A stretch of DNA of 64,000 bases from Thermoproteota archaeon (GTDB taxonomy: Archaea > Thermoproteota > Thermoprotei > Thermofilales > B9-G17). A model generated the notes under the pieces. The model was not told where the DNA came from. It saw nothing but the letters and a program-made list of their open reading frames with translations, and did no database searches. The stretch covers positions 192,001 through 256,000 of the forward strand of contig JAPDJW010000002.1 of the NCBI GenBank assembly GCA_029258885.1, in the 5' to 3' direction. How positions within the stretch are numbered: position 1 is the first letter of the stretch; the number at the start of each line of letters is the position of its first letter. This document shows positions 585 to 33,044 of this stretch, piece by piece. The position numbers and the translations under genes are program-made.

Positions 585-1790
585 CTATTCACCTAGTACT
601 ATCTTTCCCATAACAACTCTCCTTTTAGCACCAGTAGCAGTTGTGACATTATTATAGTTGCCGGATATGGTTTCGTTGGCCAGAATAGCTATGATCAGAG
701 GCTCCTTGGCCTGAGCTGGAATACCGTAATCCTCATGAACCCTAACCTCAGCTGGATAGAGATACTCCCTAAGCATCTTAAGCAATGTTTTATTATAGGA
801 TCCTCCCCCACCAACGATGACTTCATCCACCTTTCCAAGGTAGTTTTCATAGTTGTATTTTATGGATAACGCAGTGAATGCAGTTACTGTAGCTACTATA
901 TCTTCATCGCTAAGCCCCATTCTCTTACCCTCGCGATACACCTTTAACGCGTAATGTACTCCAAATTCCTCTCTGCCAGTGGTTTTTGGAGGCGGTCTCT
1001 TAATAAACTCATGCTCCATAAGCCTGCTTAAAAGCCTTTCGTTCACACGCCCCTTCGCAGCAATTTTCCCATCTGCATCAAAACTCATTTTACCGCCTGT
1101 AATGTGGCTTACAATAGCATCTATAATCATGTTTCCGGGTCCTGTATCAAAAGCCATAACATCGTCTATTGATGCTTGAGCAGGAATATATGTTACGTTA
1201 GCTATGCCCCCTATGTTCTGAATAGCCCTATTAACGTATTCACTTCTAAAAATTATGTAATCCACATATGCCGATATCGGAGCTCCCTGGCCACCCACCG
1301 CTACATCTTTATGTCTAAAATCAGCGACCGTAACAACGCCAGTTCTCGCGGCAATAACTGATGGCTCAACTATTTGAAGAGTAGATCTAACTCTATAGCT
1401 ATCTACAGTCACGGGATCTGGCATATGATATATTGTTTGACCATGTGATCCTATTAAATCGATGTCTCTCATACTTAGCCCCGCCTCCTCAACTATCCTA
1501 AAGCATGCATCCGCAAAAAGTTCAGCTAGGACGTAGTTCATTAAACATATTTTGTCAACTTTACCCGTATTTGGATCAAATAACTCGAAGACTCTACGCC
1601 TTATGCTCTCTGGGTAGGGATAGGTGTTGTAGGCCAGTATTTTAAACTTGGTGTTTATACCCGATCCACGTATCTTAACTACGACAGCCGACACTCCGTC
1701 GGCCGAGGTTCCAGACATGAGACCTATAACTAGCTTCTCCTCCTTCCTATGTATTTCAATTAGTTTCTCGAAGGGATTCATAACGGTCAC
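585..1790 (-). CDS. anmK: Anhydro-N-acetylmuramic acid kinase
   Basis: GLMSGTSADG, GSHGQTIYH, DFR..DVAVGGQGAP, NIGGIANVT, FDTGPGN and PPKTTGREEFG motifs. Likely start is ATG 1781, preceded by GGTGA. Confidence 0.95.
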   Translation of the reverse strand: MTVMNPFEKLIEIHRKEEKLVIGLMSGTSADGVSAVVVKIRGSGINTKFKILAYNTYPYPESIRRRVFELFDPNTGKVDKICLMNYVLAELFADACFRIVEEAGLSMRDIDLIGSHGQTIYHMPDPVTVDSYRVRSTLQIVEPSVIAARTGVVTVADFRHKDVAVGGQGAPISAYVDYIIFRSEYVNRAIQNIGGIANVTYIPAQASIDDVMAFDTGPGNMIIDAIVSHITGGKMSFDADGKIAAKGRVNERLLSRLMEHEFIKRPPPKTTGREEFGVHYALKVYREGKRMGLSDEDIVATVTAFTALSIKYNYENYLGKVDEVIVGGGGSYNKTLLKMLREYLYPAEVRVHEDYGIPAQAKEPLIIAILANETISGNYNNVTTATGAKRRVVMGKIVLGE

Positions 1791-1828
1791 CGTAAACTGT
1801 TATATACCGTATTAGGAAAATAAAATCT

Positions 1829-2923
1829 TTGGGTAATAACTTGAAGGGAGTTGAAAGGTTTCTTAAAGCATTAAATAGGGAAGAGCCCGATAGAGTCCCG
1901 ATATGGGAGCTTATTATTGATAGACCCGTGATTAAGTCCCTCTATGGGGATATAAGCTACGCTGATGTTGTTGAGATACTGGATTTAGATGGCATAACTG
2001 CTGGAGAGGACGTTAAAATGAGGGAGATTGAAAAGGGGAAATTCGTATGCGAATGGGGGATAACATGGGGCATAACCGAGTTTGGCGTAGTATATCCCCT
2101 TAAGGGTCCCATAAAAAGCAAGAAGGACTTAATCGACTATCAGCCTCCAGATCCCGATGCCGACTACAGGCTAAATACGCTTGAGGAGTATATCGATAGA
2201 TTTAAAGGCGAAAAAGCTATAGTTCTTTTAAGCCACGACGCCTTTGAATTCTCCCATTACTTGGTTGGCGGCATGGCGAATCTATTTAGGCTTTACTATA
2301 AGGATCCCGAGGCCGCACATACTCTAGCGGAGAAGATAGTCGAGTATAAATCAAGAGTCATAGAGAGAGCTATTAAGGCTGGGGCTGACGTTATATTAAG
2401 CGGAGACGACTACGCCGATAAAAACGGTCCGCTAGTATCACCCCGAATGTTCAAAATCTTCATTATGCCCTATCTTAAGAGGGTAGTTGATACGGCAAAA
2501 AGGTACGGGAAGCCGTTTATAAAACATACGGATGGAAAGATATGGAAAATCCTTGATATGATAGTTGCTACCGGTATAGATGGCCTACATCCAATAGAGC
2601 CCTGCGCAGGAATGGATATACTTAAGGTTAAGAGGATGTATGGAGATAGGATCTGCGTAATAGGCAATATAGATTGCTCCTATGTTCTTCCGTTAATGTC
2701 CCCAAATGACGTCGAGGAGGTTGTTAAGGAGACTATAGCTAAAGTGGGTCCCGGAGGAGGATATATATTATCCTCCAGCAACAGCATTCATCCAGGAGTT
2801 AAGCCAGAAAATTTTCTTGTAATGATTAAAGCTGCAAAAAGATATGGTCGTTATCCAATCAGTGAGGAGCTTATCAGGGAATATGGTAAGAGAAACTTTT
2901 ACAGTAAGATTTTCAAGTTTTAG
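1829..2923 (+). CDS. Uroporphyrinogen decarboxylase-like (URO-D/MtaA superfamily) protein
   Basis: ERFLKAL..EEPDRVP start, DD...GPLVSP.MF..F..PY, KHTDG, GNIDC and GGGYILSSSNSI motifs. TATA TTATATA at 1800-1806 fits a leaderless start. Confidence 0.85.
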   Translation: MGNNLKGVERFLKALNREEPDRVPIWELIIDRPVIKSLYGDISYADVVEILDLDGITAGEDVKMREIEKGKFVCEWGITWGITEFGVVYPLKGPIKSKKDLIDYQPPDPDADYRLNTLEEYIDRFKGEKAIVLLSHDAFEFSHYLVGGMANLFRLYYKDPEAAHTLAEKIVEYKSRVIERAIKAGADVILSGDDYADKNGPLVSPRMFKIFIMPYLKRVVDTAKRYGKPFIKHTDGKIWKILDMIVATGIDGLHPIEPCAGMDILKVKRMYGDRICVIGNIDCSYVLPLMSPNDVEEVVKETIAKVGPGGGYILSSSNSIHPGVKPENFLVMIKAAKRYGRYPISEELIREYGKRNFYSKIFKF

Positions 2924-4866
2924 AACGGCAATATCCACGTAGCTTTTGAAACCATGACAATAGCTGTTGCAAGCCCTATTAAAATACCTTCACCCGCTGC
3001 AACGCCCGCTACTATGAGTGCCTTATTTTCGTTCCACCACTCCTTTCCAACCACCTTGGGTGCTAGGTATTTGCTAATAAATGCGCCTATAAACGTAGGT
3101 ACTGCTGAAGTCGGTAGAATATAGGTACCCGTTAATAGACCTATAAGCGAGAACGGTATCCCCATTTTAGATAAAGCTTCGCCTATTATCCCTACCGAGA
3201 GCATAAGTGCGAAGGGATAGATCAGGGTTTCCGACCTGAACTTAAATATCTGCCCAGAAATCCATAGGCATGAGGACGCTGCTTGAACAGGCCATGAAAT
3301 CAATGTCTGAGGATAGACTGAGGAGGGTATTGGGGCTATGCTCCAATAGAACTGCACGTAAACGAAGCTCATTACGAAAAATACTATAGCTGTAAATATG
3401 AAGGCCTTGAAAAAGTCTGAGAGCCTGGTTTTAGTAAGATAAGCGGCCTTCATGCTTTGAGTCCAGTATGGAACAGCTGCTGCACTGACAATAGGTGCTG
3501 TCAACCACGGCTCTATTCCCTTATATCCACTTACGAGTATGGTCGCCTGCCAAACATAGGGTATCGATATAGAGTACCCTGTCTCACCTATAGTCCTTGT
3601 CCTTATGAGGGAGTCCATAAAGCTCCATCCAAGAGCTACAAGGAGGGAGAGCCATATCGGGAAGTCTAATCCCACTAAAGCATGGAACACTATAACGGAA
3701 AGTATAACTGTACCAGCATACCATAGGAGCAATATTTTAGGTGATGGGTATCCAGTGGCCTTCTCAGCCTTAGATAGCTTCGCTAAGCTCTTTATAGCCC
3801 TAATTATACTCTTATAACTTCTAGCTAAAACAATTATTGATACCGCTAACGTGAAGCCTATATGGGGAGCTATCCACACCCTTATGCTTGCCCTTTGGTA
3901 AACATAAGCTAACCCTGAGGCTGGAATCCACTCCTCAACCCATTCAGGGAACCAGTGGGCGAAAACTGTCAGCGCCAAATGATTACCTATAACCCACGTA
4001 GCTATGGATCCTATTAGCATGTAGAGGGCTGTGTCGAACGATATTAGAGTTCCCCCGAGAAATGCGAGTATATCCGTTGCTATACCAAATACCGCACCAG
4101 GCAATATATTCTCTATACCCATGTACCCAGATGTCAGATCAATCCATGGTATGGGTATCAACTCGACCCTTATACCCGTCATACCATAGGAAAGAGTAGG
4201 AACGCCATAAAGTAGTGTTGAGTATATTAGGCCGACCATAGCGCTTAGGATGAATACCCTAAGCTTTTTAGGGTCTCTTTCCGCTAGAGTGGAGCTCATT
4301 TCTGCCTGAACGCTAGCGAAGGGGAACGGCAGTTTCTCTATTTCAATGTATAGGTAACTAAAGAGAAAGGTTAATGAGATATCGTAGAATACATACATGA
4401 AGTATCCACCTACAAGTAGCAGTATGGGTATAAGCCACTCAGGTGCAAAGAATGTTCTAAGCTCATGTACTGGAGAATCGTACCTTGGAACCCACCATGT
4501 AGGTATTACTTCTGGTAGAGGTTTGCCAGTATAGGGGTCCTTAAAGGACCACGTTATAGGGGATCTGACAAAGTAAGATCTATAAACTAGTCCCTCAAAA
4601 GGGGCTGCGGTAGCGGCTATTCCAACCATGGAGTAAATTATAAACATTTCCTGCGTAGTGAGGGGGTTGCCTGTGAGAACGGCTATTTCGCTTAATAGTA
4701 TAGCTGTAACGTAGACTGCCGCGCTAGCGAGACCTCCGCCGCTTACTAAGCTTAGATATATTGATACTGGAAGGATCATTGCTGACGCGAAGAGTATAGC
4801 TAGGGCTGTTCTAGGGGTAAATCCAGGTTTAAATTCGAGCAATTCTTCAGACATGTAGAACACCAT
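2920..4866 (-). CDS. OPT-superfamily-like polytopic membrane protein (putative peptide/glycopeptide transporter), paralogue of 21458..23422
   Basis: Many hydrophobic segments; N-terminal GFTPRTALAILF; EIEKLPFP motif; C-terminal AGVAAGEG shared with 21458..23422. Confidence 0.7.
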   Translation of the reverse strand: MVFYMSEELLEFKPGFTPRTALAILFASAMILPVSIYLSLVSGGGLASAAVYVTAILLSEIAVLTGNPLTTQEMFIIYSMVGIAATAAPFEGLVYRSYFVRSPITWSFKDPYTGKPLPEVIPTWWVPRYDSPVHELRTFFAPEWLIPILLLVGGYFMYVFYDISLTFLFSYLYIEIEKLPFPFASVQAEMSSTLAERDPKKLRVFILSAMVGLIYSTLLYGVPTLSYGMTGIRVELIPIPWIDLTSGYMGIENILPGAVFGIATDILAFLGGTLISFDTALYMLIGSIATWVIGNHLALTVFAHWFPEWVEEWIPASGLAYVYQRASIRVWIAPHIGFTLAVSIIVLARSYKSIIRAIKSLAKLSKAEKATGYPSPKILLLWYAGTVILSVIVFHALVGLDFPIWLSLLVALGWSFMDSLIRTRTIGETGYSISIPYVWQATILVSGYKGIEPWLTAPIVSAAAVPYWTQSMKAAYLTKTRLSDFFKAFIFTAIVFFVMSFVYVQFYWSIAPIPSSVYPQTLISWPVQAASSCLWISGQIFKFRSETLIYPFALMLSVGIIGEALSKMGIPFSLIGLLTGTYILPTSAVPTFIGAFISKYLAPKVVGKEWWNENKALIVAGVAAGEGILIGLATAIVMVSKATWILPF

Positions 4867-5036
4867 TGCTGGTGGTCAATAACTTAGAGGATAATTAGCT
4901 TATTAATGTTATCATCACCATGGTACAGACAGCGCTAGTTATTCAATACATGCTATTCCAGCTAGTCCATAGGCCTACGGCAAATGATAAACAATATAAA
5001 ACGTAACTGGTATATCATGGTAGTATTTGAGGTGGT

Positions 5037-8000
5037 ATGTGCATGAACAAAAAACTATTGATCGTAATAATACCGCTATTATTAACCGTTCAACTAGTTG
5101 CCTCAAAACCGGAGGGGGAATCTATTTATAAAGAGCTATATGATAAAATAAACCTAGACAATATAAAGTATCATGTAAAGTATCTCTCATCCCTTGATAC
5201 CCTTTTCGTAGGCTATGAGGGCTATTATAAGGCGGCCGACTATATAGAGAGTAAGTTCAGGGAGTACGGCCTAAAAGTCTGGAGGCACGAGTTTAAAGTC
5301 GTCGTCCCCATCGACGAGGGATCGTATATAATATATAGGAAGACTGGAGAGAAGTTAAGGGCTTATGCCATGCTTCCAAACCTAGTGCAAACATGTTCAG
5401 GAAGGATTTCCGGTGAACTAGTATATGTTAAGGGGTATGATTTACAGGAACTTTCTGGGGTAAGCTTAGAGGACAAGATAGTTCTTATGGAGTACAACAC
5501 CTATAGAAACTGGCTGTATTTAGCAAATCTAGGAGCTAAAGCTGTAATTTTCATAGAACCCTCTGAAACGGATCTGCGGCAGTCGATAGCTAAGGTACTT
5601 TCAGTTCCATTGAATTTCACGAGAGTATACGTTACTGGAGATGTAGCTAGTAGATTAAAGGAGATAGCGAGAGAGGGTGGGGTGATAGATCTAGTAGTAA
5701 ACATGAAGTTTAAGGAGGTAGTAGGATACAATATAATTGGAGAGTTGAAGGGTGAGCTTGAAAACGATGTAATTCTAATGGTGTCGCATTACGATTCGTG
5801 GTCGGCAGTTCCAGGTAGATCCCTAGCGCTGGATGATATAGTTTCTGTTTCATCCCTACTTGAAATTGCCAGAATAATGTCTAAGTATAAACATAAGAGA
5901 ACTATATGGTTTGTAGCGTTCGGAGGACACTGGCAGGCACTAGCCGGTCCACGGAGTTTCGTGGAGGACTACTGCTTCAATGAAACCGTTCAAAGAGGAG
6001 AGCTTAAGCTATGGATGGCTATAGGCATAGATTTCTCCCTTAGAGGAAATAAGACGGCGTTAGTTGACGCCGGCTATTTCTATAGCTACGATGGAGGTAA
6101 TAGAGCTAATCTCCTAGCAAGATTTAGAGGCACATTAAGACCCCTAAGGACAGGCGAGGTATCTCCGATTGAAAGGTATCTAGCTAGGGTTATAGAGGAG
6201 ATATATGAAGGGAGAATAAAGCTTCCACAGCTCCTAGATAGTGGAATAGTTGAGGAAAATATAGGTTGGTGGGCGTCAATTCAAGAACCCTATATCCTAG
6301 ATACCGAGCCATTTATGGCTTCCGGAGGCATAGGATTCACCTTTTACACGGGCGATGTATTCAGGCCTGAGAGAGGCACAACGGTAATTCCTAAGAGAAG
6401 CTTTAACTATGAAAACCTTAAGCCGCAGATTATTGTTGCCCTGGCAACTCTCTATGGATTTGCAAACGAGGAGGATTGGGCCCTAAACTGGGACGAGGTT
6501 AAGGCCAGCAGAGCTTTCGTAGTTTCTGGAGGAGCTACAGCACTATATACCGCTAAGGGATTCAATTATATAGAGGGTAAGGTTGTTGAATACAGCTTAA
6601 TTCAAGGCAAGTATATTCCCGTACCCAATGCAATAGTAGTAATTCATAGGGGAGATCCCATAAACTTCCCATATAACGTGATATATACCTTCGCCGATAA
6701 GAACGGAACCTTCAGAATATACGGCTCTACGCCTAACACTGGAATAATGTCCCCCTACGGGGGATACGGTTCATATCACGTTAGCGCATATGTGCTGGAC
6801 GATAAAGGCAGGGTAATATACGCCCCCGACTATGGGATATATGGCCATAGAAGATTTCCGAGTACTGTTTTAGCTAGGCATGAAATTAACAGGATACAGG
6901 CGAGAGTATTCAGAGTTAAGGGTAGAATATATTTATATGGCCTTGTAGACCCCTATACCGTAAGCGTTAGGTCGGCTACAAGGTACGTAAATCCGTTTTC
7001 ATACTGGGCATCCCCGCCTACGTTTTACATAACGTTATTTAAATCTGAGACGCTAAGCGAGCCTATGAGCTTCTATGTCAGTGTTCAGCCTCCCGTTGCC
7101 GTCATATTTACGCCAAGGGAACTAAATAAGGTAACATTACTCATTAAATACGGTGCCCTAGGGAGAATAGTTGGACTCTTACAGGAGATACCGATAAGCG
7201 CGGAGGTACACGTGCATAGGACGATATATAACATTGCGATAAACTTATACAATATCTCAAGTGAAAGGTACCTTAAGCTAAAGAATTCCTTTATTGAAAT
7301 ATTCTTGGTCGAAGAAACCCTTTCCCACACACGCAAGCTAATAGATGAGGCTAAAGCTAACCTTATAAAGAGGGACTACAACGGATTCTTCAGTAGCGCC
7401 ATTTTCTCATGGCTATGGAGCATCGATAGCTATAGAAACGTAATGGCTGTTGTATTTGATGTCGCAAATACGAGCGCAATATTCTTCGTTCTATTGCTAC
7501 CCTTCACATTTTTCTTTGAACGGTTGGTGTTCCACGCAGAGGGCTATAAGAGGTTCGCTGTAATAGTATCTACGGCCATACTTTTGACCGTGTTCTTTTC
7601 GGTAATTCACCCATCCACAAAGCTTGCTTCGAACGCGTATGTAGGATTCCTGGGGGTAACTCTAGGTGGAATATTCATAGCGATAATAGTTCTATTCACC
7701 GAGGAGTTAAGGTCTTTCCTTAAAGAGATTAGGAAGAAGCTTAGGGGCGAACACTTTATAGAGAAGGGTCTAGTACCAATGACTACGATAGCCTTCTCGG
7801 TAGCTCTTGAAAACATGAGGGTTCGTAAGCTAAGAACCGTCCTAGTCCTATTTACGATAATAACAACAGTATTCAGTTTAATAGCGCTAGCATCATTTAG
7901 CTACGCGATAAGCGTATACGATAAATATCCGATAAAGTATGAGGGAGAACCGCCTTATGAAGGACTATTAGTTAAACTGGGAATAGGAGCGCCGTGGGAT

Positions 8001-9506
8001 TTAATGGGACAGGAGACGTTATCCAGCATACAGGCGATGGTTGGATTAAGGGCAAATATTTCGCCTAGAGTATGGCTTTATCCGACATCTAGAGTATTCT
8101 CGGCAGAGGGAGTTCTAATGAAAGTTAAAAGTACTCATGGGGAGACCTACATAAGAGCATTACTAGGTCTATCTCCAACAGAGCCTATGAATCCACTAGA
8201 TTTAGGCGTTATATATGAAGGTAAGGCGTTAAGGTGGTTTATAGAGGAAGACGAGTACGTATGCTATATTCCATCCGAAATTGCCTCCCAGCTAAACGTC
8301 GATGTAGGCGATACGATAAATGTTGCTGGAATAGACCTCAGGATCCTAGGAATATATGACGAAAAAATGTACGACTACTACCTCGATATTTTCGGCGATA
8401 AATTTACGCCACTAAATCCACAGAGAATAATTTCACTATCTCTAGAAACTCTGCCAGAGGAGGAGTTTGTTACCCTACCTTTCGGCGATGTAATTATAGT
8501 TCCATACGAGCTAGCACTAGAGCTTGGAGGAAACATAGCTAGCATTGCCATAACATCAAATGATGCAGAGTACATAGATAGCCTAGCATGGGAGCTTGCC
8601 GCTCATACAGCCTTTGACGTCATTTTGAGTAAAAACGGCGAAGTATTCATGTTACATAGAAGAGTAATATCGATGATAAGAGGACTTGAATACATAGCAT
8701 TCCCGTTGATCATAGGCTCACTCAATATATTTATAACAATACTTGGATCCATAAAGGAGAGGGAGAATGAAATAAAAATATACAGCTCCCTAGGCCTCTC
8801 CCCAACGGGAGTATTCGCTCTGTTCCTAGTCGAAACAATGACATACGCTTTTATAGCAATAGTTCCAGGATACATTTTAGGCATACTCTTCAACGTGTAC
8901 CTGGTGGCAAATGACATACTTCCACCAGGTTTCTCCGCAAACTACACCTCCTCCGCCGAAGTCTACACAGTTAGCATAACCTTGCTAGCTACGATCGCAG
9001 CATCCCTCTATCCTATAATGAGGGTATCAAGAACAGTCACGCCATCTTTTGAAAGAAAATGGAAGATACCGACCAAGCCCGTAGGAGATACATGGGAGAT
9101 ACCACTTCCATTTTCAGTAACAAATGAAAAATCTGTTAAGGGCATCATATATTACCTTCAAGAATTCTTTAAGGGGCTCATGATAGAAACCGATCAGCCC
9201 TACATAGTCAGGGCATTAAACTATGACCTATCCAAGAACGAAATAGATATGGTGGTAGCATTAAAGCCCATAGAATCTAATGTTACCCAGGATGTAATAA
9301 TTAGAGCTTTAAGAGTGGAAGAAAATAAGTTCTCTTTCACTATAATTGTAAAGAGAAGAACTGGAGCTAAACTTGTATGGAAATCTTCCAACTACAGGTT
9401 CATAGATGCTGTGAGGAAACAGCTGCTTACATGGCGCTTCATAGGTCCAGAGAAGAGGAGACGATACATAATGCTGGCATTAAAATCCTCTACCTCCACG
9501 AGCTAA
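5037..9506 (+). CDS. Giant membrane protein: signal peptide + PA domain + M28-peptidase-like fold + TM bundle + MacB/FtsX permease + C-terminal soluble domain
   Basis: Signal peptide; PA-like GELVYV...KIVL...GAKAVIFIEP; M28-like SHYDS and DD; FtsX motif SIKERENEIKIYSSLG; paralogue of 17059..21474. Confidence 0.8.
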   Translation: MCMNKKLLIVIIPLLLTVQLVASKPEGESIYKELYDKINLDNIKYHVKYLSSLDTLFVGYEGYYKAADYIESKFREYGLKVWRHEFKVVVPIDEGSYIIYRKTGEKLRAYAMLPNLVQTCSGRISGELVYVKGYDLQELSGVSLEDKIVLMEYNTYRNWLYLANLGAKAVIFIEPSETDLRQSIAKVLSVPLNFTRVYVTGDVASRLKEIAREGGVIDLVVNMKFKEVVGYNIIGELKGELENDVILMVSHYDSWSAVPGRSLALDDIVSVSSLLEIARIMSKYKHKRTIWFVAFGGHWQALAGPRSFVEDYCFNETVQRGELKLWMAIGIDFSLRGNKTALVDAGYFYSYDGGNRANLLARFRGTLRPLRTGEVSPIERYLARVIEEIYEGRIKLPQLLDSGIVEENIGWWASIQEPYILDTEPFMASGGIGFTFYTGDVFRPERGTTVIPKRSFNYENLKPQIIVALATLYGFANEEDWALNWDEVKASRAFVVSGGATALYTAKGFNYIEGKVVEYSLIQGKYIPVPNAIVVIHRGDPINFPYNVIYTFADKNGTFRIYGSTPNTGIMSPYGGYGSYHVSAYVLDDKGRVIYAPDYGIYGHRRFPSTVLARHEINRIQARVFRVKGRIYLYGLVDPYTVSVRSATRYVNPFSYWASPPTFYITLFKSETLSEPMSFYVSVQPPVAVIFTPRELNKVTLLIKYGALGRIVGLLQEIPISAEVHVHRTIYNIAINLYNISSERYLKLKNSFIEIFLVEETLSHTRKLIDEAKANLIKRDYNGFFSSAIFSWLWSIDSYRNVMAVVFDVANTSAIFFVLLLPFTFFFERLVFHAEGYKRFAVIVSTAILLTVFFSVIHPSTKLASNAYVGFLGVTLGGIFIAIIVLFTEELRSFLKEIRKKLRGEHFIEKGLVPMTTIAFSVALENMRVRKLRTVLVLFTIITTVFSLIALASFSYAISVYDKYPIKYEGEPPYEGLLVKLGIGAPWDLMGQETLSSIQAMVGLRANISPRVWLYPTSRVFSAEGVLMKVKSTHGETYIRALLGLSPTEPMNPLDLGVIYEGKALRWFIEEDEYVCYIPSEIASQLNVDVGDTINVAGIDLRILGIYDEKMYDYYLDIFGDKFTPLNPQRIISLSLETLPEEEFVTLPFGDVIIVPYELALELGGNIASIAITSNDAEYIDSLAWELAAHTAFDVILSKNGEVFMLHRRVISMIRGLEYIAFPLIIGSLNIFITILGSIKERENEIKIYSSLGLSPTGVFALFLVETMTYAFIAIVPGYILGILFNVYLVANDILPPGFSANYTSSAEVYTVSITLLATIAASLYPIMRVSRTVTPSFERKWKIPTKPVGDTWEIPLPFSVTNEKSVKGIIYYLQEFFKGLMIETDQPYIVRALNYDLSKNEIDMVVALKPIESNVTQDVIIRALRVEENKFSFTIIVKRRTGAKLVWKSSNYRFIDAVRKQLLTWRFIGPEKRRRYIMLALKSSTSTS

Positions 9507-9642
9507 CAACAATATATATTATAATATAATGATTTATTTGCAAATGAAATTTTTATTTCAAAACAAAAAAGATTTACATATATAAGCTCAACGTTAAAGC
9601 TTAAATAGACTTACGATTAATTTTCCCTCAGGGTGTTCTTTT

Positions 9643-11676: not shown

Positions 11677-11688
11677 ACAATATTTTTT

Positions 11689-12882: not shown

Positions 12883-12929
12883 TAAGAGGGAAAACTCAAT
12901 TCATTAAAAAGATGCGAAATAATAAAAAA

Positions 12930-14966: not shown

Positions 14967-15022
14967 CTAATTTACTTCATATATCTAATAGATAAAAATA
15001 TAAGAAAATATATTAAGGTTGT

Positions 15023-23422: not shown

Positions 23423-23485
23423 ATATTCCTTAAATTCTATTTTTGATGAAAATGCTTATATTAGTCAATAAATTTACCTTCTGGC

Positions 23486-25562: not shown

Positions 25563-27096
25563 CGCATATCACCTCAACCATAGCCTCCACGATAGCGGGG
25601 GAAATACCGTATGTTAATACGATCGTCTTTGCCTCCCTTATCATTAAGTAGTCTGTGGGCTCCTTTAATACTATAAGAGCCGATTTATCAAAGCTAGAAA
25701 TAATTCTCTTTGCAAGCTCCAACTGGCCCTTATATCTATAGGCATCATACGTTGCCACTATCACAGCATCCCCTCCCAGCCTATCAACCTCCATAATACA
25801 ATCCTCTACTTCCTCAATTAATGGATTTATGTCTATGGGAACTGTTAAACACTTTACCCCCTTATCCTCAAACTTCCTAATAACCTCTTCCTCCAGCCTA
25901 TTGAAGGGTAGCGGATACATGCTTCTGTATCGCGGCAGGAGAAGGACGATTTTCATTCCCTGTTTAAGCGGTAGGATTTTAGCGGAATCTCTAACGACCC
26001 TTATAGAGTTTAGGCAAATATTCCTGTTAATCTCCTTATGTCTAGTACATCCAACTACAGATAGTGGATAGCTTCTAGACTTTATTTGTAAAGCAAACTT
26101 TCTAAGATTCATAACCCTACTATATGCCTCTAGAATTCTCTTCCTCGAAATCCTCCCCGCCCTAACGTTATCAACTATACTATCCCTAATACTGTATATG
26201 AAGTTCTCATCGTAGCTCATCAGGAGGATGTCGCACCCAGCATTAAGAGCCATAGCCGCTATCTCGCTAGCCTCATATCTATCGTATACAGCTTTCATTA
26301 GTAGAGAATCTGTTATTACAGCGCCTCTAAATCCAAGCTCCCTCCTTAGTATTCCCTCAATAATTCTCCTTGAAAACGTCGCTGGTATAATTTCCTTGTC
26401 GATCTTTGGAAGGGCTACGTGGGCTGTCATTATAAGCTGTATACCAGCATCAACCGCCGCTTTAAAGGGCTTAAGCTCCCTGGATTTAAGAAGCTCTAAG
26501 TCGTGAGTTAGCACGGGAAGGTCTAGGTGTGAGTCTACGGAAGTATCTCCGTGTCCAGGGAAGTGCTTCCCGGTAGCAACAATCCCCTTCTCGTGGAGGC
26601 CACGTATAAACTCAACGCCCATAGATGAGACTAGTTCAGGCGTCGAGCCGAACGATCTTATCCCAATTATAGGGTTGTAGGGGTTAGTATTTATATCAAG
26701 TACTGGCGCAAAATCCACGTTAAATCCCATCGCATTAAGCTCCGCTCCAGCTATCTCCGCAACGGCCCTAGCATACCTGGGAGCTCCCGTGGAGCCTACA
26801 GCCATGTGGCTGGGAATAAATGTTACGTAGTCGTTAAATCGCATAATCAATCCTCCCTCGTGGTCTATAGCGTAGAGAAATCTTGGAATTTCAAGTTCCC
26901 TAGCATATCGGTTAAACTCCGACGTTAGACGTCTAACCTGCTCGGGGTTTCTTATATTACCTATGGTAAAGACAAGGCCGCATGGCTTAATATCCGATAT
27001 TAAATCCCTTGCTTCGTCAACGGAACTTCCCGGAAATCCTATAAACATCAGCTGACCAGCCAAATACTCAAGATCTACCTTTTCCATGGTAAACAT
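25552..27096 (-). CDS. nagZ: Beta-N-acetylglucosaminidase, GH3 two-domain type, no signal peptide
   Basis: IDHEGG, KHFPGHGDTSVDSH (NagZ-specific loop) and ITDSLLM nucleophile motifs. Confidence 0.93.
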   Translation of the reverse strand: MFTMEKVDLEYLAGQLMFIGFPGSSVDEARDLISDIKPCGLVFTIGNIRNPEQVRRLTSEFNRYARELEIPRFLYAIDHEGGLIMRFNDYVTFIPSHMAVGSTGAPRYARAVAEIAGAELNAMGFNVDFAPVLDINTNPYNPIIGIRSFGSTPELVSSMGVEFIRGLHEKGIVATGKHFPGHGDTSVDSHLDLPVLTHDLELLKSRELKPFKAAVDAGIQLIMTAHVALPKIDKEIIPATFSRRIIEGILRRELGFRGAVITDSLLMKAVYDRYEASEIAAMALNAGCDILLMSYDENFIYSIRDSIVDNVRAGRISRKRILEAYSRVMNLRKFALQIKSRSYPLSVVGCTRHKEINRNICLNSIRVVRDSAKILPLKQGMKIVLLLPRYRSMYPLPFNRLEEEVIRKFEDKGVKCLTVPIDINPLIEEVEDCIMEVDRLGGDAVIVATYDAYRYKGQLELAKRIISSFDKSALIVLKEPTDYLMIREAKTIVLTYGISPAIVEAMVEVICGGS

Positions 27097-27144
27097 CTAT
27101 CCCCCAAAAGTATATAACGATTGATTCGGTATAATGGCTACGTG
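27085..27144. promoter_or_regulatory. Compact divergent promoter with a central TATATA between nagZ and the kinase gene
   Basis: AAAAG-TATATAAC at 27106-27118. In-frame ATG of nagZ (27087, -) and in-frame GTG of the kinase (27142, +) both lie about 30 nt from the 5' edge of the box on their own strand. Confidence 0.5.
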
Positions 27145-28092
27145 ATAATACTAGCTATCGATGGGGGAGGCAGTAAAACAGAGGCAATAGCATTAAATGA
27201 TAAGGCAGACGTTTTAGGACGAGGCCTCGCAGGTCCCAGCAATCCAAATGTAGTTGGCCTCAAGTCATGTATAGAGGCAATACTTTTAGCCGCTCGAAGA
27301 GCCCTTAAAGAGGGAGGATTAGAGAAAGCGGACATACTTGTAGCCGGAATAGCTGGTGCTGGCAGATTTAAGACAAAATCGCTTATTAAGGATTCCCTAT
27401 CTAAAACCGGAATTGCGAAAAAATACCTCATATTTTCAGACGCCGAAATATACCTGGTTGCGTCCACTCGAGGTAGCTCCGGAATAATGGTAAACTCCGG
27501 AACTGGAATGATAGTCTTGGGAATGGATGATCGCGGGAGAATAGCTAGGAGCGGTGGATGGGGCTATCTCATAGACGATGAAGGAAGCGGGTTCTGGATA
27601 GGACGTGAGGCGCTAAACGCCGTGTTTAGATCATTGGATGGAAGGGGGCCGCCAACCCTACTTAGCGAGGAAGTATTAAGATTCTTCAACTCCGAGGATT
27701 TCGACGACCTTATAATCAAGATATATAGCAGTCTAACGCCTACAGATATCTCTAAGCTAACCCACGTAGTAGATAAGCTATATGAAACTGACGGGGTTTC
27801 CCGGGATATCGTTAGAAGGGCAGCACAAGAGCTCGCTAAGGCGGTAGAGGCAGTTAGAGCTAAACTTAATCTCAGATATCCAGTGAAGGTATACTGCGTT
27901 GGAGGGGCATTTGAGATGAAGTCGCTTTTAAGCGAATTCGAGAGAGCTCTAGGAGATAAGTATCTTATTTCAAAAGTTAAGCTAAGCCCTGTCGTTGGCG
28001 CTGCCATTTTAGGCTTAAAGGAGCTGCATGGAGGGAAAATAGATAAAAGATTATTGGACAAAATCTATTTAGAGTGTTTGAGGGTGGGATAG
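27121..28092 (+). CDS. BadF/BadG/BcrA/BcrD-family N-acetylhexosamine kinase (MurK/NagK-like)
   Basis: AIDGGGSKT, AGPSN, GIAGAG, SDAEI, NSGTG, GGWGYLIDDEGSGFWIG and VGG motifs. Probable start GTG 27142. Confidence 0.88.
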   Translation: MIRYNGYVIILAIDGGGSKTEAIALNDKADVLGRGLAGPSNPNVVGLKSCIEAILLAARRALKEGGLEKADILVAGIAGAGRFKTKSLIKDSLSKTGIAKKYLIFSDAEIYLVASTRGSSGIMVNSGTGMIVLGMDDRGRIARSGGWGYLIDDEGSGFWIGREALNAVFRSLDGRGPPTLLSEEVLRFFNSEDFDDLIIKIYSSLTPTDISKLTHVVDKLYETDGVSRDIVRRAAQELAKAVEAVRAKLNLRYPVKVYCVGGAFEMKSLLSEFERALGDKYLISKVKLSPVVGAAILGLKELHGGKIDKRLLDKIYLECLRVG

Positions 28093-28095
28093 ATT

Positions 28096-29076
28096 ATGGC
28101 TACTAGTGAGTTGGGTAGGAAGGATAGGGAGCTATTTAAGCTCCTAGAGAGGCTAACTACCGAGCAGATAAATCCGAGATCTACTAGATTAAGCGAGTTG
28201 TCAACAGTAGAGATACTAAAAATAATAAACGACGAGGATAAAAAGGTTGCATTTGCTGTGGAAAAAGAGATTCCAAATATAGCTAAAGCTGTAGATACGA
28301 TAGTAGACGCCATTAAGAGAGGAGGTAAATGGATATATGTTGGAGCTGGAACCAGTGGTAGATTAGGGATAATTGACGTAGCCGAACTTCTTCCAACATA
28401 CGATATAGGTCCTGAGGTAGCTGAAGCTATAATTGCAGGAGGACCTGGGGCTGTCTTTAGACCTATAGAGGGGGCTGAAGACGATGAGGAAATGGCTGTT
28501 AGGGAGCTTAAAGCTAAAAGACTATGCAGTAAGGATGTGGTTGTAGGCATATCGGCCAGCGGTAGGACGCCCTATGTAATTGCTGCACTGAGATACGCTA
28601 GAGAGATAGGAGCAAAGGCTATAGCTATAACCTGCGTTAGGGATTCACCTATAGTTAAACACGCAGATATAGTTATATGCCCCAATACGGGCCCTGAGGT
28701 CATAACAGGCTCCACGAGAATGAAAGCGGCTACAGCGCAGAAAATGATTTTAACGATGATGAGCACGGCCATTATGGTTAGACTCGGAAGAGTTAAGGGC
28801 AATTTAATGGTTACACTCGAGCCTGTCAGTAGGAAGCTAATTGAGAGAGCTAAGAGGATAATAATGATCGAGACTGGCGTTGACTATGATACAGCAACTA
28901 AACTGCTTGAGGAATCTAAGGGTAACGTGACAGCGGCGATAGTAATGGGGAAGGCGAACGTAAGCTACGAGAAGGCAATAGCATTATTAAATGCAACGAA
29001 CAATGTTCCCACTAAGGCTATAGAATTAGCCGAAAAACTTAGGAGAGAGGGTGTACTTGATAAGTGGAGCGGTTAA
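28096..29076 (+). CDS. murQ: N-acetylmuramic acid 6-phosphate etherase
   Basis: TTEQINP, YVGAGTSGRLG, DVAELLPTY and IEGAED (both catalytic Glu retained), GISASGRTPYV, TGSTRMKAATAQKMIL and GNLMV motifs. Confidence 0.95.
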   Translation: MATSELGRKDRELFKLLERLTTEQINPRSTRLSELSTVEILKIINDEDKKVAFAVEKEIPNIAKAVDTIVDAIKRGGKWIYVGAGTSGRLGIIDVAELLPTYDIGPEVAEAIIAGGPGAVFRPIEGAEDDEEMAVRELKAKRLCSKDVVVGISASGRTPYVIAALRYAREIGAKAIAITCVRDSPIVKHADIVICPNTGPEVITGSTRMKAATAQKMILTMMSTAIMVRLGRVKGNLMVTLEPVSRKLIERAKRIIMIETGVDYDTATKLLEESKGNVTAAIVMGKANVSYEKAIALLNATNNVPTKAIELAEKLRREGVLDKWSG

Positions 29077-30217
29077 AACAGGGTTAGATGTACTTGTCGA
29101 AGAGAAGCTTAGAAGCATAGAGGGAGACAAGGTAGGTTTAGTAATAAACCATACGGCTTTAACTAGAGACCTGGAGTTCATAGTTGATGTATTTCGAAGA
29201 TGTGGAAAGGAGATACCGGTAGTTTTTTCACCAGAGCACGGCTTAATGGGTGACGTTGCTGACGCCGTAAAGGTTGAGTCATATAGGGATCCCGATTTAG
29301 ACGTATATGTATATAGCTTATACGGGAAAACATATGAGCCACCCCTAGATCTCGTCAGGGATTTCGATGCACTAGTATATGATATCCAGGATTTAGGAGT
29401 TAGATGGTATACCTTTATTTCAACCCTCTACTACTCCCTAAGGGCAGCGGCAAAAGCCAATACACCGATTTATGTTCTGGATAGACCTAACCCTGTAACC
29501 GGAGTAGCTATAGAGGGTCCGGTTTTAGATCCCAGATTTAAGTCCTTTGTAGGAATATATAGGCTTCCGACGAGATACGCCTTAACATGCGGCGAGCTAG
29601 CCCTCCTCTACAATAAGGAGGAGGGATTTAATGCTGATTTAAAGGTAATAGAAATGAGAAACTGGAGAAGGAGCATGTGGTACGATGAAACAGGATTAAT
29701 ATGGGTTCCTCCCTCCCCCAACATACCGTCGCTTGAAACCGCAACAATATACCTTGGTACATGTCTAATAGAGGGCACGAACATTTCTGAAGGCAGGGGA
29801 ACTCCTAATCCATTCGTCTACATAGGAGCGCCCTGGATTAAGCCTAGGGATCTAGCAAGACGCATGAACTCGCTTAACCTTAAGGGGGTAAAGTTTAGAC
29901 CAATCTACTTCAGACCTTCTGTGTCCAAGTATGCTGGTGAAAGGTGCGGAGGAGTACAGGTCCATTTAATTGATAGAGAGAAATTTCAGCCTCTAAGGAC
30001 GGGCTTGTATCTAATAAAGACTATTATGGAAATGTATCCGGATAAGTTTGAGTGGAGGGTGTTTAAAGGGGAATACTTCTTCGATAAACTCATAGGTAGA
30101 GGCTACGTCAGAAAGTATCTCGAGGAGGGATATGATATAGAATACATTGAAGAGACCTGGCTTAAAGACCTACAGGAGTATAGGGATAGAATTAAGGATA
30201 TTATGCTGTATGGATAA
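29051..30217 (+). CDS. namZ: Exo-beta-N-acetylmuramidase (DUF1343), no signal peptide
   Basis: VKTGLDVL, FSPEHG, YSLYG, YDIQDLGVRWYT, LDRPNP, PSPNIP and EGTNISEGRGT motifs. Confidence 0.92.
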   Translation: MYLISGAVKTGLDVLVEEKLRSIEGDKVGLVINHTALTRDLEFIVDVFRRCGKEIPVVFSPEHGLMGDVADAVKVESYRDPDLDVYVYSLYGKTYEPPLDLVRDFDALVYDIQDLGVRWYTFISTLYYSLRAAAKANTPIYVLDRPNPVTGVAIEGPVLDPRFKSFVGIYRLPTRYALTCGELALLYNKEEGFNADLKVIEMRNWRRSMWYDETGLIWVPPSPNIPSLETATIYLGTCLIEGTNISEGRGTPNPFVYIGAPWIKPRDLARRMNSLNLKGVKFRPIYFRPSVSKYAGERCGGVQVHLIDREKFQPLRTGLYLIKTIMEMYPDKFEWRVFKGEYFFDKLIGRGYVRKYLEEGYDIEYIEETWLKDLQEYRDRIKDIMLYG

Positions 30218-30331
30218 AGCGGTGTTTTAAGGCATAATGTACCTGCACTATTCTCTTAGTGTTTTATACAATGGCTAGTAGATGCTATAACTGGAACAAT
30301 AAAGTTTAAAATAAATCCAGTAATATAGTCA

Positions 30332-31942
30332 TTGGACGGTGATCGCTTGAAGTTTAAAGGAATGCTTATACTTGAATTCAGCAAGCCCCTGACAGAAGAG
30401 CACAACGGGCTCATTAGACACGTGGTAGACGAATTAAATAATAATATATTGGTTAAGGGCGCGACATTACCTGAGGAGGCAGCTAAAGTAGTCGATTTCC
30501 GTATAGAGGACGGAAAGCTGGTACTAAATCTTGAGACTGGTAGACAGGTTAGGATACATAGTGCTGCTATGAGAATTAAAAACTACGTAGCTAAGATCTT
30601 TGGCTCAAAGCTAAAGGTTGGAGTAAGAGGCTTAACTCTGAAGGACACGGTTATAGAGCTTGATGGAGAGTTTTCAGTCTCACCTAAGATACCTTTAATA
30701 AGGAAGCTATTAGTGGACGAGGGTAAAACGTACGTATACCTGGATGTTATGGATGAGAGCGTATTAAAGAAGCCGGTGCTGGATAGGCTTATTAAGCTAC
30801 TTAACGATAAGGAGATGAGGGCGAAGTGGAAGGGTAAGGCCGAACACTGGCAGCTTATTAAGAGGAGCAGGGAGAAGGAGCCCCTGTTTAAAGAGGATCC
30901 TAATAAAATCTTCGAGGAGATAGGATGGATAAAGAGGTTTTCGATAGGTCAGTGGATATACACTCCGCCGGCCATATACTTAATAAACATGATAAAACAA
31001 CTCTTCTTGGAGGAGGTAGTTAAGCCTCTAGGGTTTGAGGAGGTAGTATTCCCGAAGATATATCCTCCGGAGATAGGGCTTAAAACAGGGCATTTAAAGG
31101 GCACCATAAACTCGATGCTCTTCGCTTCACTACCGATCTCCTACGATATATCAGCCTTCGAGGAGCTTATAGACTACATGTCCGTAATGAACGAGGTTCC
31201 TCAGGAGGATCTTAGGGATTATCTTAGGCCACCATCCTACTTCCTCTGTTTTGCACAGTGCGAGCCATTCTACCAGTTCTTCAGTGGAGAAATAGTTGAC
31301 GATAGAGCGCTTCCTATCAAGTGGTTCGACCAGAGCGGTCCATCATTTAGGTGGGAGGCGGGAGGCCTACATGGAGTTGAGAGGCTAATAGAGTTCCACA
31401 GAATAGAGGTTGTTTGGCTTGGAAAGCCCGAGCAAGTTGTTGAAATAAGGAATCAGCTACTGGAGAGATACGAGCACTTCATGGATAAGGTGCTGGATCT
31501 AGAGTGGAGGTGGGCTTGGGTAACACCATGGTACCTTGAGCACGCAGGCGTAATAGAGAAAATAAGTGAGGAGATTAATAGACCAGGAACAATAGATTTC
31601 GAGGCCTGGCTGCCGTATAAGGGATCTAGGGATGACGCTAAAGCATGGCTTGAAATAGGGAATATATCAATTCACGGAACGAAGTTCACAGACCCATTTA
31701 AGATAAAATACAGCAAGAAGAACATGAAGCTGTGGACCGGTTGTTCAGGGTTTGGAGTAGAACGCTGGATGCTAGTTTTCATAGCGCAGAAGGGATTTGA
31801 CCCCGAGAACTGGCCAAGTAAGCCGAGAGAATACGTTAAGAAGAACCCAATGCCTAAGTCGTTACTAATGGTAACCTATCCTAAGACTAAGGAAGGAAAA
31901 GAATTACTCAAGAAAATTGTAGATTTATATTCTAATCCTTGA
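30332..31942 (+). CDS. serS: Seryl-tRNA synthetase, methanogen-type (SerRS2, Zn-dependent)
   Basis: AQCEPF, FRWEAGG..G.ER..EF.RIE and WTGCSGFGVERW carry the Cys/Glu/Cys Zn ligands; full N-terminal domain present. Probable start TTG 30347 after GGTGA. Confidence 0.9.
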   Translation: MDGDRLKFKGMLILEFSKPLTEEHNGLIRHVVDELNNNILVKGATLPEEAAKVVDFRIEDGKLVLNLETGRQVRIHSAAMRIKNYVAKIFGSKLKVGVRGLTLKDTVIELDGEFSVSPKIPLIRKLLVDEGKTYVYLDVMDESVLKKPVLDRLIKLLNDKEMRAKWKGKAEHWQLIKRSREKEPLFKEDPNKIFEEIGWIKRFSIGQWIYTPPAIYLINMIKQLFLEEVVKPLGFEEVVFPKIYPPEIGLKTGHLKGTINSMLFASLPISYDISAFEELIDYMSVMNEVPQEDLRDYLRPPSYFLCFAQCEPFYQFFSGEIVDDRALPIKWFDQSGPSFRWEAGGLHGVERLIEFHRIEVVWLGKPEQVVEIRNQLLERYEHFMDKVLDLEWRWAWVTPWYLEHAGVIEKISEEINRPGTIDFEAWLPYKGSRDDAKAWLEIGNISIHGTKFTDPFKIKYSKKNMKLWTGCSGFGVERWMLVFIAQKGFDPENWPSKPREYVKKNPMPKSLLMVTYPKTKEGKELLKKIVDLYSNP

Positions 31943-33044
31943 TCGATGAAGCAACTATGTTATGAAGCAGGGGTCTAATCCTTAAAATAGCCCTGTTTTC
32001 TCTTGTAGGGTGTACTCTATTCGTCAGAAACACTACGAACAGCTCCTCCTCTGGATCGATCCAAAGGGAGGTTCCAGTAAATCCGGTATGTCCATACGAT
32101 CTATCGCTAAATAAGTCCCCGCAGGATGAACCCCTAGTTTTTAGGGCCCATCCAATACCTCGTCTGTCGTTTAACCCCTCCGTATGGCATTGAGTCATTA
32201 AATCGACGCTTTTCCTAGAAAGTATCGTTACATTACCTAAGGAGCCTCTATTCAGCATAAATAAGGCAAATTTAGCTATATCTAGAGCTGTTGAGAAAAG
32301 ACCAGCATGTCCGGATATACCATCCATTCTATAGGCGTTTTCGTCATGCACCTCGCCCACGAGTATGCGTTTCCTGAATTTACAGAACTCCGTTGCAGCT
32401 ATTCTATCTGCGACCTCCTTGCTAGGATTATACGTTGTATCGTTCATTCCAAGGGGATTAAATATCAGATCTCTAGCTAGAACGTCGATCCTCTTACCCG
32501 TCAAATACTCAATTATATATGTGAGGAGAATTATACCCAGATCGCTGTAGACAACCTTATCACCAGGAGAATATTTCAACGGCATCCTTATAACGTACCT
32601 AAAGACTTCATCTCTAGAGCTACAGTACGAGTATAGAGGAAGCCAAGCCGGAAGACCGCTAGTATGCGTAAGCAAGTGTAGGACGGATACCTTCTGTTTA
32701 TCGCCTTCACTGTAGAGGGGGGCTAAACCCGGAGACACCAGATCAATAACTTTATCATCAAGCCTCAAAACACCCTCCTCAACCAGTATCATGGTTAAAG
32801 TTGCGGCGACGATAGGCTTAGTCAAAGACGCTAGGTCAAATATCGTATCCTTACGCATCTCCACACGCCTAGGAGTGATCATCGAGTATCCGAAGGCCTT
32901 ATGGTAAACTATCCTACTTCTTCTTCCAACTAAGACCACAGCTCCAGGGAAAGCTCCATTCTCAATACACTTGCATAGAAATTCATCAAGCCTACTAAGC
33001 CTACTAGAGCTCAATCCGACGTCTTCCGGTCTAGCGGTTTCCAT
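31932..33044 (-). CDS. Beta-lactamase-fold serine hydrolase (AmiE/YbbE-like MurNAc-L-Ala amidase candidate), cytoplasmic
   Basis: FDLASLTKP (SxxK), LLTHTSGLP, YSDLG, GHAGLFSTA and HTGFTG motifs; no signal peptide. Confidence 0.85.
   Translation of the reverse strand: METARPEDVGLSSSRLSRLDEFLCKCIENGAFPGAVVLVGRRSRIVYHKAFGYSMITPRRVEMRKDTIFDLASLTKPIVAATLTMILVEEGVLRLDDKVIDLVSPGLAPLYSEGDKQKVSVLHLLTHTSGLPAWLPLYSYCSSRDEVFRYVIRMPLKYSPGDKVVYSDLGIILLTYIIEYLTGKRIDVLARDLIFNPLGMNDTTYNPSKEVADRIAATEFCKFRKRILVGEVHDENAYRMDGISGHAGLFSTALDIAKFALFMLNRGSLGNVTILSRKSVDLMTQCHTEGLNDRRGIGWALKTRGSSCGDLFSDRSYGHTGFTGTSLWIDPEEELFVVFLTNRVHPTRENRAILRIRPLLHNIVASSIKD

Follow-up and report, generated by a model that had tools for sequence, protein, structure and literature searches.

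Murein, the bacterial peptidoglycan, is recycled in the cytoplasm of Escherichia coli by way of AmpG, NagZ, AmpD, AnmK and MurQ, with MpaA and LdcA; the gene of PBP4B (yfeW) lies beside murQP in that organism. Bacillus subtilis has a recycling operon, murQ-murR-murP-amiE-nagZ-namZ, whose NagZ, AmiE and NamZ are secreted, and the founding paper on NamZ lists bacterial phyla only, with archaea unmentioned (PMC8054146). A route for N-acetylmuramic acid (MurNAc) that does without a phosphotransferase system (PTS) is formed by MurT-MurK-MurQ in Tannerella forsythia, and MurK is also described from Clostridium acetobutylicum (PMC5790795; PDB 8zo3). The GHL10 domain of Cwp19 is a demonstrated lytic transglycosylase that yields 1,6-anhydro-muropeptides (PMC6016235), and anaerobic bacterivorous ciliates have laterally acquired pbp4b, NamZ, anmK, nagB-PIGL, murQ and lysA (PMC13198582). 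Searches of open-access full texts turned up no account of a MurNAc pathway in archaea, and a preliminary description of the DNA studied here had likewise known of none. That DNA, called the window, is a stretch of 64,000 nucleotides from a Thermoproteota archaeon (GCA_029258885.1, contig JAPDJW010000002.1, positions 192,001 to 256,000), and its subject is a block of about 33 kb that encodes predicted enzymes for murein sugars and the murein stem peptide.

Judging from the gene content set out below, it is likely that this marine hydrothermal archaeon salvages fragments of bacterial peptidoglycan through a bacterial-type pathway, and it probably feeds on the wall debris of neighbouring bacteria. 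Gene identities were assigned by Pfam and NCBIfam profile scans with curated cut-offs, and by comparison with solved structures in the PDB. The scans recovered every core enzyme named in the preliminary description (AnmK, NagZ, NamZ, MurQ, a BadF-type kinase, an AmiE-like hydrolase and the diaminopimelate decarboxylase LysA) in its expected place (Table 1), and AnmK, MurQ, NagZ and LysA pass their curated models. AnmK also matches the Pfam AnmK family with 327 bits, and NagZ carries KHFPGHGDTSVDSH, which fits the motif K-H-(F/I)-P-G-H-G-x4-D-(S/T)-H. MurQ aligns with PDB 4s12 across residues 18-299 (262 bits), and NamZ is full length with both of its domains (272 bits to PDB 4k05). Residues E97 and E125/E128 of MurQ, the latter in an EGAEDD motif, do not vary among 16 archaeal MurQ proteins and align with the solved enzymes; the two catalytic glutamates are Glu83 and Glu114 in E. 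coli numbering. The kinase has the MurNAc/N-acetylglucosamine (GlcNAc) kinase 8zo3 as its best match among solved relatives (148.6 bits) and falls below the cut-off of the NagK_SO3507 model. The AmiE-like protein has its S-x-x-K motif in the form S-L-T-K.

None of AnmK, NagZ, the kinase, MurQ, NamZ, the AmiE-like protein and LysA has a signal peptide or transmembrane (TM) segment; NamZ lacks any hydrophobic stretch at its N-terminus, and its Pfam match begins at residue 28. Because NagZ, NamZ and the AmiE-like protein lack signal peptides, exo-degradation would take place in the cytoplasm, as in Gram-negative recycling, and the idea that secreted exo-enzymes degrade the fragments as in B. subtilis had to be given up.

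The host itself makes no murein. Its genome measures 2.10 Mb and is 99.9% complete and 0.6% contaminated, and neither the Mur-ligase family (PF08245) nor MurA (TIGR01072) was found in it, with control genomes positive. Self-recycling is therefore very unlikely and pseudomurein also unlikely. The preliminary description had proposed the use of foreign murein rather than self-recycling and had named wall-synthesis genes as the thing to look for; their absence bears the proposal out.

LysA is an orphan. No other gene of the diaminopimelate (DAP) or alpha-aminoadipate pathway was found in the genome: DapB, DapF and LysW were not detected, and LysX was matched only far below its cut-off. The LysA and NagZ genes overlap by 11 nt. 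A decarboxylase for meso-DAP that overlaps NagZ in a genome with no route to DAP fits the salvage of DAP from stem peptides, and it is our strongest argument that the peptide part would be used beside the sugars. Within the host's own order LysA was seen only in cassette-bearing genomes, and it also lies within the cluster of genome G010 of that GTDB order (G, C, L and f numbers are our handles for genomes, contigs, loci and families; the window lies on contig C1 of the host). Across the phylum it is found in 88 of 401 genomes and is common in other families, and co-occurrence at that scale is uninformative. The genome also lacks an EPSP-synthase-fold protein (AroA/MurA) and the glutaminase half of GlmS; taken with the missing DapB, DapF, LysW, LysX and glutamate and alanine racemases, this makes the host look like a strongly auxotrophic scavenger.

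The cassette is not confined to one genome. In a sample of 400 Thermoproteota genomes, MurQ was found in 37 and NamZ in 41, and 36 genomes carry both above cut-off, mostly as adjacent genes. A MurK-MurQ-NamZ core is thus present in about 9% of the sampled genomes, with NagZ, AnmK, the AmiE-like gene and a PIG-L deacetylase in some of the loci. Gene content was counted in 22 other archaeal loci, and the core recurs in them, in answer to the synteny check that the preliminary description had called for. The kinase gene and MurQ are neighbours in 21 loci; NamZ is present in 19, PIG-L in 10, a 318-aa double-GNAT protein in 9, AnmK and the AmiE-like gene in 8 each, and NagZ in 7. PIG-L and the double-GNAT protein always come together (L053-L057 and contig C6 of the host); in family f20 the two stand between NamZ and MurQ. 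The G010 cluster adds LysA, an M28+PA peptidase, two TIM-barrel genes and an Opp-type ATP-binding cassette (ABC) transporter. Two cassette-bearing metagenome-assembled genomes (MAGs) were labelled 'Nitrososphaerota archaeon' by their depositors.

In trees with bacterial rows, the archaeal AnmK sequences form one group (100*), as do the archaeal NamZ sequences (96*). Archaeal MurQ falls into two starred groups, with a single origin still possible, and branching within the archaea is similar in all three trees. In these trees, which the preliminary description had called for, the archaeal copies group with each other. Bacillaceae and Clostridia have loci that bear AnmK-NagZ-kinase-MurQ-AmiE/NamZ together, which makes transfer of the cassette as a unit plausible, and we propose that the bacterial-type pathway was acquired by archaea long ago. 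As a separate observation, a complete genome of the same order without MurQ and NamZ holds a 46-codon remnant of the AnmK C-terminus (G022:C1:139784-139921), a possible relic of cassette loss.

Candidates for the first cut in murein were found on the cell surface. The GHL10 protein has an N-terminal signal or anchor and a C-terminal TM segment, and its sole solved relative is Cwp19 of Clostridioides difficile (PDB 5oq2, E 5e-9 over about 250 residues). The formation of 1,6-anhydroMurNAc products is established for Cwp19 alone, and a putative transglycosylase of this kind would be a source of substrate for AnmK. The block also reaches about 3 kb beyond the left end of the window (C1:189202-192385, or L150:15202-18385), where a GH18 gene, an Amidase_2 gene and a TIM-barrel gene lie. 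Aligned to peptidoglycan-recognition proteins (PGRPs) and T7 lysozyme, this Amidase_2 has the His, Tyr, His, Thr and Cys of catalytic PGRPs (IHH, DIGYHF, GHRD...T.CPG); the Cys is the residue that separates amidases from non-catalytic PGRPs. It has a signal sequence and a C-terminal anchor, and a second anchored Amidase_2 is encoded on contig C5. Homologues of the TIM-barrel (AP_endonuc_2) gene occur inside the G010 cluster and at two f23 loci. In two relatives Amidase_2 and GHL10 are joined in frame in a single open reading frame (ORF; G008:C13:3307-4563, 585 aa; G157:C131:5397-6758, 531 aa), and in G141, G079 and G071 they are neighbours. At the level of sequence these fusions would be direct evidence of archaeal GHL10 proteins acting on murein. 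Two surface hydrolases had been credited with cleaving murein in the preliminary description. Cleavage at the surface keeps good candidates in GHL10 and the PGRP-type Amidase_2, to which it is better assigned than to the two proteins named at that time, the M28-like giants, which are not murein-specific. The C39_2 peptidase has an N-terminal signal or anchor and a C-terminal TM segment as well.

From these genes we infer the catalytic steps, substrates and uptake route of the pathway as follows. Membrane-anchored GHL10 and PGRP-type MurNAc-L-Ala amidases, one encoded just left of the window and one on C5, would cut murein at the cell surface and give anhydro-muropeptides, glycan pieces and free stem peptides. 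The fragments would then be imported, with the OPT-like and DUF6785 proteins, or the Opp-type ABC systems of relatives, as candidates. In the cytoplasm NagZ would release GlcNAc, NamZ would release non-reducing MurNAc, and the AmiE/PBP4B-like hydrolase would release the peptide. MurNAc-6-phosphate would come from AnmK and the MurK-like kinase, and MurQ would turn it into GlcNAc-6-phosphate and D-lactate. A PIG-L deacetylase on contig C6 and a stand-alone deaminase of the GlmS-isomerase type on C2 may then lead to fructose-6-phosphate or to UDP-GlcNAc synthesis, and the orphan LysA would turn released meso-DAP into lysine. The genome holds further pieces that could belong here. A GlmS-isomerase-only protein adjoins a GlmU-like gene on C2, and D-2-hydroxyacid dehydrogenase homologues, sought at the suggestion of the preliminary description for the use of D-lactate, are present. 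A candidate L-Ala-D/L-Glu epimerase gene is coupled to an aminopeptidase gene, and on C6 an M14 peptidase, which among solved structures shows no likeness to MpaA, adjoins a second BadF kinase. Near these two lies the C6 PIG-L and GNAT pair (C6:46612-48293; L065:13612-15293). As an observation in its own right, the PIG-L and double-GNAT pair is reminiscent of MshB/MshD of mycothiol synthesis; on C6, a gene for myo-inositol-1-phosphate synthase is found 4 kb from it.

Several results weigh against this pathway, or against parts of it. The score of the kinase to the broad-specificity hexokinase of S. tokodaii (2e2n, 137.6 bits) is near that to 8zo3, so its specificity is that of a candidate. The AmiE-like protein is closest to PBP4B, yet its 226 bits to NF002968 fall short of the cut-off of 385, and its best solved relatives are esterases. 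The likeness of GHL10 to Cwp19 is modest (39 bits) and the transglycosylase role putative. Neither AmpG nor an SLT-type transglycosylase was found in the genome, and no MurNAc or muropeptide transporter was recognised in it, with no search made for PTS MurP or MurT. NagA and NagB, which the preliminary description had singled out for a search, were both missing from the genome. The replacement of NagA by the C6 PIG-L is guesswork; the model that this protein matches best is bacillithiol BshB1, at a score below cut-off. LdcA and the glutamate and alanine racemases, the latter also on the list of genes to look for, were not found in the genome searches, so that D-Glu and D-Ala have no recognised fate; the catabolism of stem peptides proposed earlier is supported in part, by the orphan LysA, and has candidates for its remaining steps. 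Among Amidase_2-positive genomes 10 of 14 are MurQ-positive, and among GHL10-positive genomes 17 of 27, with 37 MurQ-positive genomes in the phylum sample, but these counts are not phylogenetically independent. Finally, the bacterial sample in the trees was small and picked by MurQ similarity, so that the trees name neither a donor nor a number of transfers.

The gene block belongs to the archaeal genome and contains no chimeric join. The best bacterial relatives of its proteins are 42-56% identical and its gene order is like that of Bacillota clusters, as would be expected if assembly or binning had fused a bacterial fragment onto an archaeal contig, but the chance of such an artefact is close to nil. 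The window (C1:192001-256000) lies mid-way within a 647-kb contig, and in tetranucleotide signature the block is ordinary (12th-51st percentile of the genome). A 16.1-kb contig from a separate study is colinear with window positions 20001-35614 at about 99.3% identity, extending from the second giant to NrdD by way of LysA, NagZ, the kinase, MurQ, NamZ, SerRS and the AmiE-like gene, and so across the SerRS and NrdD junctions; two further studies have contigs of 6.1-6.4 kb from the kinase gene through the AmiE-like gene. The same cassette stands in archaeal surroundings in more than 20 genomes, and in the trees the archaeal copies group as clades of their own. A chimeric join was accordingly ruled out on the tetranucleotide signature and the colinear independent assemblies, in agreement with the preliminary description, which had argued for an archaeal contig from the archaeal-type serS inside the block and from TATA/GGTGA signals. 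The SerRS is indeed of the methanogen type and 64% identical to a Thermoproteota MAG copy, and TATA-like elements and GGTG(A) motifs are visible before LysA, MurQ and the first giant protein. Proteins of another genome in the same GTDB order best match Ignisphaera MAGs. Near-identical DNA occurs in vent and marine-sediment metagenomes (at least 63% of sampled words in 11 runs from 10 studies). None of the runs listed as holding the 8.7-kb core is recorded as RNA; the kinase-MurQ stretch has 9% of its sampled words in one marine-sediment metatranscriptome, which speaks neither for nor against expression. The right half of the window encodes NrdD with an intein, KsgA, geranylgeranyl reductase and form III RuBisCO. 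The NrdD intein (gene at window 33528-36905) has a LAGLIDADG homing-endonuclease domain, and an intein-less paralogue lies at C4:83210-85102.

With ownership settled, the remaining question is what the cassette is used for. Salvage may be mainly anabolic in a heavy auxotroph, supplying glucosamine-6-phosphate (GlcN-6-P) for its own glycans and lysine from meso-DAP rather than energy, a possible reading that we consider rather unlikely. The lack of the GlmS glutaminase half, with an isomerase-only protein next to a GlmU-like gene as the sole GlmS-like protein, speaks for it, as do the want of any lysine pathway gene found besides LysA and of an EPSP-synthase-fold protein, which suggests broad auxotrophy. 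The isomerase-only protein could, however, make GlcN-6-P from ammonia, and D-2-hydroxyacid dehydrogenase homologues are available for the use of D-lactate; this reading is in any case compatible with the salvage of wall debris, and the gene set serves both. It is distinctly unlikely that the surface enzymes kill live bacteria on contact and that the cytoplasmic cassette mops up the products. The two Amidase_2 proteins, GHL10, GH18 and the C39_2 peptidase do all carry a signal or anchor and a C-terminal TM segment, and relatives have Amidase_2-GHL10 fusions, but anchored enzymes are equally suited to capturing debris, no sign of access to the murein of living cells, such as a way through an outer membrane, was seen, and the block shows no secretion or toxin-delivery apparatus. 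The preliminary description had spoken of scavenging or bacterivory; the use of foreign murein stands, and no evidence distinguishes bacterivory from the scavenging of debris. A substrate other than murein, such as chitin-type N-acetylhexosamine oligomers, other lactyl-ether sugars or the host's own glycans, is highly improbable. In its favour, the kinase is similar to a broad hexokinase, the use of chito-oligosaccharides would suit NagZ and GH18 as well, and PIG-L deacetylases serve archaeal chitin pathways. Against it, the curated models that AnmK, MurQ and NamZ pass are those of MurNAc-specific enzymes. Neither a MurA nor a Mur ligase was found by which the host could make MurNAc, and both a PGRP-type amidase and LysA are linked to the cassette. 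The salvage of bacterial peptidoglycan fragments remains the preferred reading.

The rest of the block is of a different kind. About 20 kb between AnmK and LysA is mostly two copies of a three-gene membrane set (2920-11676 and 12930-23422), which are the two surface hydrolases and duplicated membrane modules of the preliminary description: two giant proteins, two OPT-like proteins and two DUF6785/6784 proteins. Both giants have an N-terminal signal or anchor and a C-terminal TM segment. The genome holds at least seven such paralogous sets, each with a giant of about 1500 aa, an OPT-like protein of about 650 aa and a DUF6785/6784 protein of about 680 aa; further copies lie at C1:75490-87244, C1:163062-174661, C2:104616-111368, C4:99914-108461 and C5:90606-99080. 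No ABC ATPase was found beside the sets. In the relatives examined the set is absent beside the cassette, except for one distant DUF6785 homologue in L052. The preliminary description had treated the 33 kb as one unit, and this part of it had to be revised, since about 20 kb is a set that is repeated at least seven times in the genome and does not accompany the cassette in relatives. For the same reason, with sets on C1, C2, C4 and C5 and none by the cassette in relatives, the giants (M28-like/MacB_PCD/FtsX) were rejected as specific murein hydrolases. The three-gene sets are best read as general surface-peptidase and uptake modules, seemingly undescribed in archaea; that they import muropeptides here is a guess.

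Between this stretch and AnmK lies a gene for a URO-D-like protein, which has a 28%-identical homologue near the cassette in L052. A 9-mer, GTATATAAC, occurs in the divergent intergenic regions of both halves of the locus. Of its 23 copies in the genome, only those at 1799-1807 and 27110-27118 are no more than 70 nt from the start of an ORF, a pattern that was observed post hoc. Possibly the element would place the URO-D-like gene and the two halves of the locus in a single regulon.

Table 1. Genes and sequence elements of the block and its immediate surroundings. Positions are window coordinates unless a contig or locus prefix is given; bit scores are given with model cut-offs where available.
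Feature	Position	Strand	Remarks
Membrane-anchored GH18	within C1:189202-192385, left of window		signal/anchor and C-terminal TM
Surface-anchored PGRP-type Amidase_2, 480 aa	L150:16331-17773, left of window		Pfam 76.7 bits
Xylose-isomerase-like TIM-barrel gene (AP_endonuc_2), 5' part in window	1-385	-	rest left of window (L150:17744-18385)
AnmK, anhydro-MurNAc kinase, cytoplasmic	585-1790	-	NF007148 486 bits (cut-off 387), NF007142 443 (435)
9-mer GTATATAAC, candidate TATA-type or operator element	1799-1807	-	38-bp divergent AnmK-URO-D intergenic region
URO-D/MtaA-like protein	1829-2923	+	divergent from AnmK; family-level match only
OPT-like membrane protein, about 11 predicted TM segments	2920-4866	-	44% identical to 21458-23422 protein; no Pfam match of its own
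Giant surface/membrane protein, M28-like + MacB_PCD + FtsX	5037-9506	+	one of at least 7 paralogues
DUF6785/DUF6784 polytopic membrane protein	9643-11676	+	one of at least 6 paralogues
GHL10 TIM-barrel protein, candidate surface lytic transglycosylase	11689-12882	-	PF02638 106.9 bits (cut-off 27.9)
DUF6785/DUF6784 membrane protein, second copy	12930-14966	-	
PQQ-type beta-propeller with Ig domains, surface-anchored	15023-16843	-	N-terminal signal/anchor, C-terminal TM
Second giant protein, M28-like + MacB_PCD + FtsX	17059-21474	+	signal/anchor, C-terminal TM
OPT-family transporter-like protein, about 12 predicted TM segments	21458-23422	+	candidate importer
Papain-like cysteine peptidase (Peptidase_C39_2), surface-anchored	23486-24346	+	Cys and His motifs present; family-level match only
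LysA, diaminopimelate decarboxylase	24330-25562	-	TIGR01048 456 bits (cut-off 298)
NagZ-type GH3 beta-N-acetylglucosaminidase, cytoplasmic	25552-27096	-	NF003740 209.1 bits (cut-off 207); PDB 6k5j 293 bits
9-mer GTATATAAC, second copy	27110-27118	+	24-bp divergent NagZ-kinase intergenic region
BadF-family sugar kinase, MurK-like, candidate MurNAc/GlcNAc 6-kinase	27121-28092	+	best solved relative 8zo3
MurQ, MurNAc-6-phosphate etherase	28096-29076	+	TIGR00274 336.5 bits (cut-off 302)
NamZ (GH171) exo-beta-N-acetylmuramidase, cytoplasmic form	29051-30217	+	NamZ_N 253 bits, NamZ_C 193 bits
Methanogen-type seryl-tRNA synthetase (SerRS)	30332-31942	+	housekeeping gene inside block, outside pathway
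Beta-lactamase-fold serine hydrolase, AmiE/PBP4B family, cytoplasmic	31932-33044	-	Pfam 239 bits

Sediments hold a large amount of carbon and nitrogen in peptidoglycan, a rather persistent pool whose breakdown is as a rule ascribed to bacteria and to grazing eukaryotes. In archaea that are free of murein, a conserved pathway of ancient date would bring archaea into the cycling of peptidoglycan carbon and nitrogen, and salvage would explain how strongly auxotrophic vent archaea are supplied with amino sugars and lysine. A bolder and unlikely version is that several Thermoproteota lineages are specialised wall consumers, in which a surface tool of PGRP-type amidase and GHL10, a single fused protein in some species, lyses or strips bacteria on contact, the products enter a cytoplasmic MurNAc pathway and lysine is drawn from meso-DAP; if true, this would mean archaeal bacterivory and an unrecognised peptidoglycan sink in hot sediments. 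The archaeal surface amidase and lytic transglycosylase may be useful as thermostable murein-cutting reagents, and heat-stable MurQ, AnmK and NamZ, as well as PIG-L as a substitute for NagA, are parts of the pathway open to direct testing.

The locus can be set beside the described systems one at a time. With the B. subtilis operon it shares the linkage of MurQ, AmiE-like, NagZ and NamZ genes in one locus, so that the parallel to the ybb operon drawn in the preliminary description is a sound one, and a predicted sequential exo-degradation to GlcNAc, MurNAc and peptide. It differs in that the archaeal NagZ, NamZ and AmiE-like proteins have no signal peptide, in having a kinase instead of a PTS, and in adding AnmK, LysA and GHL10. 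Neither a MurR-type (RpiR/SIS) regulator nor a PTS transporter domain is among the block genes, with no genome-wide search for PTS components made. Unlike the B. subtilis operon, the archaeal locus cannot serve recycling, since its host makes no murein. T. forsythia also has a BadF-family kinase gene directly upstream of murQ and also depends on the MurNAc of other bacteria, but there MurNAc goes into the cell's own wall as well, whereas the archaeon has no wall synthesis; no MurT homologue turned up in the archaeon, with no search aimed at MurT made.

The cytoplasmic processing of anhydro-muropeptides by NagZ, an amidase, AnmK and MurQ would be shared with E. coli. In contrast to E. coli, the archaeon has no detected AmpG, LdcA or SLT, its Amidase_2 is anchored at the surface rather than cytoplasmic, and it has NamZ. 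Cwp19 of C. difficile likewise has a surface-exposed GHL10 catalytic domain whose products would need AnmK (PMC6016235; PDB 5oq2). The archaeal GHL10 is held by TM segments where Cwp19 is held by CWB2 repeats, and its target would be foreign murein where that of Cwp19 is the cell's own wall. The set acquired by the anaerobic ciliates is nearly identical, and they too have no murein of their own, but they are eukaryotes that ingest bacteria, their genes are dispersed and their deacetylase is fused to nagB. Set against all of these, the archaeal pathway would put known enzyme families together in a new way: the exo-enzymes would be cytoplasmic, a kinase would stand in for the PTS and PIG-L for NagA, LysA is an orphan, and the cell surface would carry a PGRP-type amidase and GHL10.

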